A stretch of DNA of 20,903 bases from contig NQJD01000042.1 of NCBI GenBank assembly GCA_004284765.1, forward strand, positions 1 through 20,903, written 5' to 3'. Each line of letters starts with the position of its first letter. Positions within the stretch are counted from its first letter, which is position 1. This DNA comes from Candidatus Electronema aureum (GTDB lineage: Bacteria; Desulfobacterota; Desulfobulbia; Desulfobulbales; Desulfobulbaceae). Positions 5,295-7,103 of the stretch are shown piece after piece. The notes under the pieces were generated by a model. That model was not told the origin of the DNA, searched no databases, and saw only the letters and a list, made by a program, of their open reading frames with translations. The position numbers and the translations under genes were made by a program.

Positions 5295-5732
5295 ATGGAC
5301 CCTGTTACAATGGCGGCTATCATCAACAGCAGCGTCAACGGCATCGCGTGCGGAGCAGCAGGCGGTTTGACTGCTGCCACAGTCCCGGCAGCAGTCAAAG
5401 CGGCGACCGATGCGTGGAACAGCTTCAAAGCCCTGTTGCAGCGCAAGTTCGGCCAAGACAGCGCGTTGCTGAAGTCAGTGCAGGAACTGGAGCAGAACCC
5501 AGACTCCAAAGCCCGCAAGGATCTAGTTGCGGAGGAGGTGGCGAAGAGCAAGGCGCATCAGGATGAAGAGCTGTTGGCCGCTGCTGGCAAGCTGCTGGAG
5601 CTGCTCAAGGAAAGCGCAGGCGGAGGGCAGACTCGCGCCAAGTATCAGGTTGATGCGCAGGGAGCGCAGGTTGGTGTGATTGGTGACAATGCCAACGTGA
5701 AGGACGGCATTCATTTCGGCAGACGAGAATAA
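5295..5732 (+). CDS. small Gly/Ala-rich N-terminal plus helical protein with a C-terminal NLR-matching motif (candidate Bell/HeLo-like effector)
   Basis: 145 aa. AAGGAG RBS at 5283..5288, 6 nt before the ATG. N-terminus MDPVTMAAIINSSVNGIACGAAGGLTAATVPAAV is rich in small residues (glycine-zipper-like). Residues ~35-110 look amphipathic helical. A G-rich linker follows. The C-terminal AQVGVIGDNANVKDGIHFG matches the N-terminus of the next gene. Confidence 0.8.
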   Translation: MDPVTMAAIINSSVNGIACGAAGGLTAATVPAAVKAATDAWNSFKALLQRKFGQDSALLKSVQELEQNPDSKARKDLVAEEVAKSKAHQDEELLAAAGKLLELLKESAGGGQTRAKYQVDAQGAQVGVIGDNANVKDGIHFGRRE

Positions 5733-5741
5733 CCGAACATG

Positions 5742-5769
5742 GTAGGGTTACGGCATGCCGTAACCCTAC
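5742..5769. repeat. perfect 28-bp palindrome in the effector-NLR intergenic gap
   Basis: GTAGGGTTACGGCATGCCGTAACCCTAC equals its own reverse complement (12-bp stem, 4-nt loop as RNA). No T-run follows it. It lies between the stop at 5730..5732 and the ATG at 5787. Same GTAGGG...CCCTAC style as the hairpins at 7184..7299. Confidence 0.9.
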
Positions 5770-5786
5770 GACGTGGTGATTTACAG

Positions 5787-7103
5787 ATGAGCAATCAAAC
5801 CGGCATCATTGGCAAGAAAGCACGTGTTAAAGGCGGCATTCATTTCCATAATCATCCTGCACCGCCGCCCATCATCCCCGACCAACGCCCTCCCCGTGAA
5901 CCCTGCTTTCTCCACCGCGAGGAGGAGCTTATCTGGCTGAACGAGAGGCTGCATCCCGGCAAGGTCGTTGCGGTATGCGGGCCGGGCGGCATGGGCAAGA
6001 GCGCACTGGCTGCGCAGGCGGTGCGTCGGCTGGAGCCAGTCCGCTTCCCGGACGGCATCATCTTTCACAGCTTTTACAGTCATCCCAGAATAGAACAAGC
6101 CCTGCAAGAGATTATCAAGGCTTTTGGCCAGGAGCCTGAGCCGCCATTAGACACCACCCTGCGCAGGGTGCTCTCAGGCAGGCAAGCCCTGCTCATCCTT
6201 GATGGGACGGAGCGGGCTGATGACCTGCCAGCACTGCTGCGGCTGCGCGGTGGGTGCGGAGTGCTGATCACCAGTAGGAAGACTGAGGACGCACCGGATG
6301 AGCTGCGTGAACTGAAGAAGCTGGAGAAGGCGCAAGCAGAAGAGGTGTTCCGGCACTACAGCAAGATTGCGGGTGATGACGTAAACGTGGCGGACATCTG
6401 CAAGATACTGGACGGCTGGCCGGTGGCCCTGCGCATTGCCGGGCGGTATCTGCGCAAGACGAAAGAGAGCGCGGCGGAGTACCTGCGCTGGTTGGAGAAG
6501 GAGCCGTTCAAGGAGCTGGGCGACGGCGAGCATCAGGAGGAGAATGCCGCCTTGCTGCTGCGGCGCAGCGTGGATGCGGTGAGCGATGATGCCCGGCTTG
6601 CGCTGGAGTTGGCAGGAGATTTGGCCTTTCTGCCGATAGCCCGTGCCCCAGTGGTAGCCATGATGGAAGGTGATGAACGACGAACACGCAACGCATTGAA
6701 CGATCTGGCCAATTACGGTTTGGTGGAGCGCATGAAAGAACGATGGAAGGTAAGCCACGCCCTGATTCATACCTATGCCCGCATCGAGCTGCCATTAAGC
6801 AAGGAAAGCATAAGGCGAATAGCACAATACATAAAAATAGAATCATGTCTTTTTGATGAGCAACGTCTGCGGGAAATTGTTAAACATGCTCTTGAAAGTC
6901 CGGGCAGTGAGATTACTGCCTATTGGCAGGAGGTGATCATCACCACCACTGGCAACAAGCACTACGAGGCAGGGCAGACGTTCAGGGTGAGATTTCCCGA
7001 CGGCAGCGATGCTGTCGGGGTGATTGGGGAGGTTCTGCTTAAGTGCGATGGGCCGGACAAGGCAGTAACGCAGCAATTTCCTGTCAGCTATTTGCCTAAA
7101 TAG
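5787..7103 (+). CDS. NB-ARC-type STAND (NLR-like) P-loop ATPase with an N-terminal short motif and no repeat sensor domain
   Basis: 438 aa from the ATG at 5787; the track start at 5739 reads through the palindrome. Walker A GPGGMGKS (res 65-72). Walker B LLILDG (135-140). VLITSR (159-164). GxP motif DGWPVALRIAG (209-219). MHD-position SHALIHTYA (323-331). N-terminus MSNQTGIIGKKARVKGGIHFH is followed by a Pro-rich linker HPAPPPIIPDQRPPREP. The C-terminal ~100 aa has no TPR/WD/LRR pattern. Confidence 0.85.
   Translation: MSNQTGIIGKKARVKGGIHFHNHPAPPPIIPDQRPPREPCFLHREEELIWLNERLHPGKVVAVCGPGGMGKSALAAQAVRRLEPVRFPDGIIFHSFYSHPRIEQALQEIIKAFGQEPEPPLDTTLRRVLSGRQALLILDGTERADDLPALLRLRGGCGVLITSRKTEDAPDELRELKKLEKAQAEEVFRHYSKIAGDDVNVADICKILDGWPVALRIAGRYLRKTKESAAEYLRWLEKEPFKELGDGEHQEENAALLLRRSVDAVSDDARLALELAGDLAFLPIARAPVVAMMEGDERRTRNALNDLANYGLVERMKERWKVSHALIHTYARIELPLSKESIRRIAQYIKIESCLFDEQRLREIVKHALESPGSEITAYWQEVIITTTGNKHYEAGQTFRVRFPDGSDAVGVIGEVLLKCDGPDKAVTQQFPVSYLPK

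Follow-up and report, generated by a model that had tools for sequence, protein, structure and literature searches.

What is the role of a short peptide that two neighbouring genes of a cable bacterium share at their facing termini? The question arises from a stretch of 20,903 nucleotides of Candidatus Electronema aureum (contig NQJD01000042.1 of assembly GCA_004284765.1; the whole stretch is called the window here), in which a gene for a small protein (gene 1) is followed by a gene for a larger one (gene 2). Both lie on the plus strand, adjacent and collinear, with a gap of 54 nt between them, and the shared peptide, referred to below as the tag, stands at the C terminus of the first product and at the N terminus of the second. 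The evidence presented here makes it quite probable that the two genes form an amyloid signalling module for immunity or cell death of the kind known as BASS-type Bell/NLR pairs, where templating of the effector by the receptor leads to the death of the cell. Ca. Electronema aureum is a freshwater cable bacterium of the Desulfobulbaceae. Literature abstracts describe cable bacteria as multicellular filaments, and the multicellular host that goes with BASS-type Bell/NLR pairs is thus found here as well. The exact product of gene 1 is also encoded on OW818638.1 (GCA_942492785.1), and in the latter assembly the product of gene 2 is named NB-ARC protein of Ca. Electronema aureum.

The initial annotation had aligned residues 124-142 of gene 1 (AQVGVIGDNANVKDGIHFG, nt 5664-5720) with residues 3-21 of gene 2 (NQTGIIGKKARVKGGIHFH, nt 5793-5849), counted 11 identities in 19 positions and considered such a similarity unlikely to be due to chance. 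Both peptides were found at these places with that number of identities, and the pair yields a BLOSUM62 local score of 59. Shuffling the whole of gene 1 against gene 2 reached this score in 4 of 5000 trials (Gumbel p ~6e-4), whereas with shuffles limited to the last 40 residues of gene 1 and the first 40 of gene 2 it was not reached in 20000 trials (maximum 42, p ~6e-8). Likewise, none of 200000 shuffles of the 19-mer gave 11 identities, and the shuffles of the termini and of the 19-mer thereby bear out the claim that the similarity is not accidental. On the effector side the motif was found to run 8 residues further upstream than the segment first delimited (KYQVDAQG, from nt 5640). The description of the terminal positions also holds, as does that of the linkers beside the motif, ESAGGGQTRA for gene 1 and HNHPAPPPIIP for gene 2. 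The same applies to the composition, rich in G, N and Q with a hydrophobic pattern, which corresponds to that of BASS-type motifs (about 20-25 residues, enriched in G/N/Q/V/I and depleted in P/L); neither copy in the window contains P or L. In AlphaFold2 (AF2) monomer models the predicted local distance difference test score (pLDDT) is below 50 across both tag regions. When the two copies were scored against a hidden Markov model (HMM) of the tag family, with the results listed in Table 1, none of 1000 shuffles exceeded 8.5 bits.

The DNA of the two motif regions is identical at 33 of 57 positions (58%), or at 72% over a 39-nt direct repeat. The 13-mer CGGCATTCATTTC occurs at exactly two sites in the 20.9-kb window, with 0.03 expected by chance. 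The sharing of this 13-nt core had been noticed correctly, but its positions are 5705-5717 and 5834-5846 and not 5706-5718 and 5833-5845, a shift of one base each.

Judged by its sequence relatives, gene 1 is a Bell-type effector. A precomputed match to PF20701 exists for all full-length gene 1 homologues (16/16). The gene 1 family profile aligns with a Streptomyces Bell-BASS3 protein found in a genome scan (hhalign 98.7%, E 2.5e-16), which carries the C-terminal BASS3 motif VDAREAKGLQVGDNNTQTNNF and whose gene overlaps a downstream NLR gene with an N-terminal region reading VVDARGASGVQIGNGNLQINVS. Because of its BASS3 end and the overlapping tagged NLR gene, the Streptomyces locus can be regarded as a textbook example of the Bell/BASS3/NLR pairs that Dyrka et al. 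2020 described. The alignment of the Bell domains to this BASS3 carrier continues straight into the N-terminal half of the effector-side tag. In the AF2 model gene 1 consists of five helices, the first of which (residues 3-22) is hydrophobic, and residues 109-145 have a pLDDT below 50. A start of the MDPxT/MEPIx type (MDPIT, MEPIS etc.) is common to many effector-side motif carriers, and an N-terminal region conserved across Bab, Bell and Hell domains has been described (Ibarlosa 2024, bioRxiv 10.1101/2024.11.07.622273). Neither the Bell profile nor a short Bell homologue retrieved anything relevant in sequence searches of the PDB, and NCBIfam had no match for gene 1.

Gene 2 is an NB-ARC STAND ATPase as far as its domain matches indicate. 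Its annotated start at ATG 5739, from which the open reading frame (ORF) is open, would give a protein of 454 residues; it was set aside for ATG 5787, which is the likelier start because most homologues of the motif type begin at MSNQ, MSDQ or a close variant. The 16 extra codons (5739-5786) are the palindrome of the intergenic gap itself. More than 350 homologues of gene 2 were found, mostly NB-ARC-TPR proteins of 640-700 residues from cable bacteria, and TPRs are present in most of them as well as in the syntenic orthologue P0020. DNA homology to the syntenic locus L008 extends from 5158 to 6809, is then broken and resumes at 7268, so that a 458-nt segment in the window replaces a 910-nt TPR region of L008. 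The resulting C terminus of about 97 residues recurs in P0019, which is 80% identical overall and bears a different N-terminal tag, and in P0027 (57%), which makes it a maintained alternative domain and not a product of read-through. This domain has no Pfam match and is predicted, with low confidence, to be beta-rich in an AF2 model of gene 2 that is poor overall (pLDDT 57).

The initial annotation had suggested that other effectors or receptors with the same motif would define a signalling family. A family profile (A5) was built from short motif-bearing proteins and searched with HMMER over 1.84 billion representative proteins. It retrieved 201 protein clusters at E<=1e-3, 43 of them at E<=1e-10, with the family consensus KYxIxAxxSQVGVIGDxAxVEGGIHF. 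Over 124 distinct instances the profile reads, in percent, Q81 [VI] G100 V76 I59 G100 D87 x A74 x [VI]98 E64 G95 G100 I94 H91 F91; the residue after D is variable (N in 31% and H in 31%). By inspection, C-terminal copies mostly end in GGIHFG(K), whereas in N-terminal copies GGIHFH mostly leads into a Pro-rich linker. The window conforms to this rule, with GIHFGRRE and a stop codon at the end of gene 1 and with GIHFHNHPAPPP in gene 2. Receptor-side tags typically have His-rich runs (HFHNH, HFHQH, HHHHYP) before the Pro-rich linker, and effector-side tags end in G/K.

A Pfam scan of the 108 carriers with at least 100 residues assigned HetE-N (Bell-like) to 21, AAA_16 to 10, NB-ARC to 8, EAD7 and NACHT to 7 each, Metallophos to 5, bDLD1 to 4 and COR-B to 3; TPRs are additionally present in several carriers. 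The tag is a large conserved family restricted to the C termini of effectors and the N termini of receptors. The consensus tag was absent from phages and plasmids in tblastn searches and from viral contigs in a scan. An earlier search with a profile of the motif plus its flanks had returned short fragments only. Scans of genome contigs and of metagenome contigs with the Bell alignment gave 3 loci each, a low number that is explained by the narrowness of the back-translated pattern.

The tag occurs on adjacent partners in other loci as well. A syntenic orthologous locus with the same tag pair (L008/L009) contains genes for a permease, a deaminase, a Bell protein, an NB-ARC-TPR protein and Uma2, the receptor of L008 being an NB-ARC-TPR protein of 662 residues. 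Between the receptor tags of the window and L008 most invariant residues have identical codons, I8, A12 and V14 show synonymous changes, and amino acid differences fall on the variable positions. In an unrelated metagenome-assembled genome (L018), a Bell protein ending in QVGIVGDHAHVEGGIKFG is followed 32 nt on by an NB-ARC-TPR protein starting with MPDEQINLNHSPVGIVGDHAHVAGDIY. In Desulfosarcina ovata (L014, AP021876.1), a 63-residue ORF (5001-5192) ends in KYNLSIANSEVGVIGDHAHIEGGIHFNRK, and 200 nt further a Metallophos-NACHT protein (5391-7469) carries VKNAQIGVLGDNTHVEGGIHFHH at its N terminus. The motif recurs in independent pairs, and the partners match. The 63-residue ORF of L014 comprises little beyond one helix and the tag, an unusual minimal architecture of partner and receptor.

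Four loci from cable bacteria, namely L002 (Ca. Electronema nielsenii F5), L005, L011 and L012, show a different combination. The Bell domains they encode closely match that of the window (92% identity over residues 1-105 for L002), but the effectors end in an alternative tag, QTGSGAVAQGxGAVAAGAGGIAVGGNVxGGINMPG, and the adjacent receptors start with this alternative tag (NSGSGAxAQxGxVAAGxxGxAxG). When eight effector C termini were compared with eight receptor N termini, combinations of the same type scored at least 56 (mean 82) and mixed combinations at most 39 (mean 23). Both partners exchange their tag type together while the globular domains remain unchanged. Such a joint exchange is predicted by a specific interaction of tag with tag and not by a DNA artefact.

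The variety of tags in this receptor family is larger still. Among the cable-bacterium NB-ARC(-TPR) proteins (>350 matches; homologues P0018-P0137 inspected) at least six N-terminal tag types were seen, for example GSGAVAQG..GIAVGG, F.S.GGEQNIAQGD.AIGKQ, MSTVNQH.DGNGNI.AGSGDV, MSD.KII.GDNFESGGG and MI..SISFG, and P0050, P0053 and P0137 have two tags in tandem. A second NB-ARC-TPR protein of Ca. Electronema aureum, P0056 (L015, OW818638.1 1813114-1821141), has a different N-terminal tag; no Bell or other tagged gene was found beside it in L015, and P0056 appears to be an orphan receptor. In the related metagenomic locus L010 (982-1110), the receptor N terminus contains AFISII, a reading of GIHFHNH in a frame displaced by one base, and the receptor is either frameshifted (pseudogenised) or affected by a sequencing error.

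The pair was compared with the amyloid motifs described so far. Like the pairs of BASS families 1-10, it combines a Bell effector bearing a C-terminal motif with an adjacent collinear NB-ARC/NACHT protein bearing an N-terminal motif, and the motif likewise comprises about 20-25 residues rich in G/N/Q/V/I in a multicellular host. It differs from these families in its Desulfobulbia host, in tag strings that fall outside the survey and in a receptor without TPR or WD repeats. In the survey of Dyrka 2020 (bioRxiv 10.1101/2020.01.06.895854), Table S1 lists 34 Desulfobulbia genomes with 0 Bell hits and 0 BASS pairs, and the motif list in Table S2 contains none of the strings IGDNA, IGDN, GVIG, EGGIH and GGIHFG. 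GGIHF occurs in the motif table only in BASS2 rows, e.g. VVQARDVHGGIHFH.

HMMs were built from the BASS1, BASS2 and BASS3 sequences of the survey, and BASS4-10 were compared by string search only. The BASS1 HMM matched neither the effector-side nor the receptor-side copy and gave no hhalign hit. The BASS2 HMM scored 3.2 bits with the effector-side copy (reached by 66/1000 shuffles) and 10.9 bits with the receptor-side copy (0/1000), with an hhalign P of 3e-6 over 9 columns (V.GGIHFH). The BASS3 HMM scored 6.4 bits with the effector-side copy (8/1000 shuffles) and -4.2 bits with the receptor-side copy, with an hhalign P of 0.004 over 13 columns. With BASS2, an actinobacterial family (sub-motifs all_04 and nlr_03), the tag shares the C-terminal half V-x-G-G-I-H-F-(H), but the N-terminal half is VVQARD in BASS2 and QVGVIGDxA, one residue longer, in the family of the window, and the similarity covers 9 columns only. 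With BASS3, which belongs with the fungal PP and metazoan RHIM motifs, the likeness lies in the other half: the N-terminal half of the effector-side copy, VDAQGAQVGVIGD, aligns without gaps to BASS3 VDARGAQGVQIGD and is identical at 9 of 13 positions to the BASS3 segment of Streptomyces sp. 769 AJC53633, the shared half being VDAxxAQ..IGD only. The BASS3/RHIM core G-[IV]-Q-[IV]-G is not kept and reads V-G-V-I-G in the window; instead of N-x-Q-x-N-x-F, the C-terminal half has V-E-G-G-I-H-F (V-K-D-G-I-H-F in the effector-side copy of the window); and the receptor-side copy has no BASS3 match. On these alignments the tag is related to BASS2 and BASS3, but it is no member of BASS3 as defined and probably none of BASS2, because only half of each motif matches and the RHIM-type core is lost.

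The tag may have a wider significance. We consider it conceivable, though somewhat short of probable, that it represents a widespread unclassified BASS family of 200 or more clusters at 50% identity, in which a BASS3/RHIM-like half and a BASS2-like half form a chimera and which serves as a common currency linking Bell, EAD7 and bDLD1 to receptors of the NB-ARC, NACHT, Metallophos-NACHT and COR types, and that the concerted exchange of tag cassettes in cable bacteria leads to orthogonal death-signalling channels in an electrically coupled filament.

A candidate for identity with the tag is BASS11 of the Bab/Agp system of E. coli, for which amyloid templating, membrane damage and abortive infection have been demonstrated experimentally (Ibarlosa 2024, 10.1101/2024.11.07.622273). 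There too, a small Bell-related effector has a C-terminal tag and the adjacent receptor an N-terminal one, and the reported partner domains of BASS11 (EAD7, NACHT, NB-ARC) overlap with those of the tag family of the window. The Agp receptor, however, has a TPR-GreA/B-C-PIN architecture and is not a STAND ATPase. The key positions of BASS11, which was compared by its published description only, are Q92...D99-N100, with a spacing from Q to D of 7 as against 6 here, and N100 is described as conserved whereas the position after D is variable in the present family. That the tag is absent from the phage, plasmid and viral collections speaks weakly against its being the same as BASS11, which is prophage-borne. 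Identity with BASS11, known to us from that description, is the main uncertainty about the novelty of the tag. A further analogy is the HET-S/NWD2 (HRAM) system of Podospora anserina, in which the N-terminal motif of an NLR templates the C-terminal prion-forming region of the pore-forming HeLo-type effector encoded next door. That system is fungal and there is no sequence similarity; its effector has two pseudo-repeats forming a beta-solenoid, where the Bell protein of the window has a single copy and so falls outside the HET-s-type HRAM. Among the papers searched, none connected cable bacteria to NLRs or to amyloid signalling, nor did any print GGIHF in its main text. The kind of system, a Bell/BASS/NLR pair, is already known, but the founding survey (Dyrka 2020) covers neither its host lineage nor its tag family.

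The window contains both a Bell effector and an adjacent tagged NB-ARC protein, as expected of BASS-type pairs, and the collinear, close arrangement is also typical, since 91% of the surveyed pairs are collinear and most are closely spaced (Dyrka 2020, bioRxiv 10.1101/2020.01.06.895854). The Bell and NB-ARC identities, the conserved family of terminal motifs and the co-variation of the partners support the proposal of the initial annotation that the shared terminal motif marks an effector-NLR signalling pair. By analogy with HET-S/NWD2, BASS1/BASS3 and Bab/Agp, we infer that the pair would act by amyloid templating and membrane attack, with a presumable role in defence. In the resting state, the hydrophobic N-terminal helix of the Bell executioner would be held inactive and connected by a flexible linker to the C-terminal tag of about 27 residues. 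A trigger would cause the NB-ARC receptor to oligomerise, and the N-terminal tags clustered in this way could fold into a cross-beta (beta-arch) nucleus. This nucleus would template the matching tag of the Bell protein, the N-terminal helix would be released to damage the membrane, and the cell would die, plausibly in an abortive infection that spares the rest of the filament.

Several observations weigh against such a module. The Pfam HetE-N score of gene 1 is 18 bits and stays under the cut-off of 25 bits, and Foldseek, run with the Bell model on the PDB, returned only generic helical bundles (E>1) and nothing significant. Gene 2 has no TPR or WD repeat sensor according to Pfam and hence lacks the repeat-bearing NLR architecture. 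The pair lies among housekeeping genes with no recognisable defence island, and PADLOC had no matching model, with none for gene 1 and only weak irrelevant matches for gene 2. Finally, the receptor-side copy of the tag is atypical. It has a Lys where the family has a conserved Asp (87%), a substitution seen in 1 of 124 instances and also in P0023 and P0107, and its stretch GKKARVKGG (window 5814-5837, residues 10-17) has a net charge of +4 where the family reads GDxAxVEGG. The acidic residues are retained in the effector-side tag, GDNANVKDG. It may be speculated that the charge-reversed receptor tag stacks less on itself and more on the acidic tag of the Bell protein.

The same charge reversal could also favour hetero- over homo-association of a different kind, in which the tag is a homotypic peptide that docks but forms no amyloid, either through augmentation of a beta-strand or as a small EAD/Death-like adaptor, and recruits the effector without prion-like templating. 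The occurrence of the tag on the adaptor-type domains EAD7 and bDLD1, which bind homotypically (Kaur 2020), fits such a peptide. We nevertheless regard docking as unlikely: a segment that spans about 20-27 residues, abounds in G/N/Q/V/I, contains invariant glycines and is modelled with low confidence in the monomer has the signature of BASS and of the corresponding FASS motifs, and every tested BASS/FASS family formed fibrils and prions (Dyrka 2020, 10.1101/2020.01.06.895854; Ibarlosa 2024, 10.1101/2024.11.07.622273). In addition, the halves of the tag align with BASS2 and BASS3, and BASS3 is experimentally amyloid-forming.

Less likely again is a decaying relic, a module of BASS-type origin that has lost its TPR sensor, whose tag has drifted and which no longer signals. 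The replacement of the TPR region, with a receptor of 438 residues in the window against the 662 of L008, would agree with decay, as would the Lys at the conserved Asp position and the frameshifted receptor N terminus of the related L010. Yet both ORFs are intact and the Walker A motif is preserved, the alternative C terminus is the one conserved in P0019 and P0027, and the KKARVKGG variant of the tag recurs in P0023. An artefact of the DNA, in which a short dispersed repeat or local gene conversion is translated in both genes, could account for the exact 13-nt run and the 39-nt direct repeat but is effectively refuted: identity of the DNA does not exceed 58-72%, the window has no third copy of the 13-mer, hundreds of sequences from unrelated genomes retain the peptide, and the comparison with L008 shows invariant residues kept, with few synonymous changes, alongside variable positions that differ in amino acid. 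The initial annotation had named this accident of translation as a scenario that would overturn its proposal; it is excluded, and the proposal of a signalling pair is essentially right.

Table 1. Features of the Bell/NLR pair; coordinates refer to the window.
Feature	Coordinates	Strand	Description and evidence
Gene 1	5295..5732	+	145-aa Bell-type (Pfam HetE-N-like) helical effector (predicted), C-terminal signalling motif; ORF
N-terminal hydrophobic helix (MDPVT...), residues 1-22	5295..5360	+	Presumed membrane-inserting element; helix 3-22 in model
Effector-side (Bell) motif, full extent K116-G142, KYQVDAQGAQVGVIGDNANVKDGIHFG	5640..5720	+	57 bits against family HMM; pLDDT <50
Perfect 28-nt palindrome GTAGGGTTACGGCATGCCGTAACCCTAC in 54-nt intergenic gap	5742..5769	+	RNA fold -27.3 kcal/mol, z = -4.75
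Gene 2	5787..7103	+	438-aa NB-ARC NLR-like STAND ATPase (predicted), N-terminal motif, no TPR repeats; Pfam NB-ARC 4.3e-9, NACHT 4.7e-7
Receptor-side (NLR) motif M1-P24, MSNQTGIIGKKARVKGGIHFHNHP	5787..5858	+	32 bits against family HMM, reached by 0/1000 shuffles; pLDDT ~24
Proline-rich linker from motif to NB-ARC, APPPIIPDQRPPREPCFLHRE	5859..5921	+	Translation; P-rich linker kept in homologues
NB-ARC nucleotide-binding domain, Walker A GPGGMGKS	5937..6569	+	Pfam NB-ARC over residues 51-261
Alternative C-terminal region of ~97 residues (342-438) in place of TPR sensor	6810..7100	+	Homology break against L008
Second perfect 28-nt palindrome, GTAGGG-N16-CCCTAC	7272..7299	+	Downstream of gene 2, right edge of swapped segment

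The gene for the NLR-like receptor is bracketed by two palindromes, which share the ends GTAGGG-N16-CCCTAC; in the syntenic locus L008 both show 100% conservation. The right-hand palindrome is located 4 nt past the point where homology to L008 resumes. A canonical intrinsic terminator was ruled out for the intergenic hairpin because no U-tract follows the palindrome. The two palindromes may mark the boundary of a cassette exchange, or they may be elements of RNA processing or stability.

The pair is flanked by a tadA-like deaminase gene and a permease gene on one side and by Uma2, dnaX and ybaB on the other, with trp and ilv genes around. Between the deaminase gene and gene 1, a long inverted repeat (5058-5130) has arms of 28 nt that are 93% complementary and an RNA fold of -47 kcal/mol (z = -7.3); it could represent a terminator, or else a mobile or repetitive extragenic palindrome (REP)-like element of small size. 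Two genes of the Uma2 family (putative restriction endonuclease-like) were found within 20 kb, at 7587-8063, directly downstream of the NLR gene, and at 11641-12171, and a third adjoins the orphan NLR of L015. Upstream of the first of these genes, at 7331-7491, about five units of TTGCACGAGAG / TTG(T/C)ACTCTCGTG are spaced by 23 nt in alternating orientation, an array that looks like iterons or operators.

If the pair signals as proposed, amyloid-type NLR signalling would reach cable bacteria as a third distant multicellular lineage after actinobacteria and cyanobacteria, and the link of such cell-death control with multicellularity would be strengthened. As an abundant motif family with clear invariant positions, the tag could be used in detectors of amyloid signalling motifs, and the swapping of tags on near-identical domains in cable bacteria constitutes a natural experiment on the specificity of templating. 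For the biology of the cable bacteria themselves, the module would mean a programmed sacrifice of single cells within a conductive filament.

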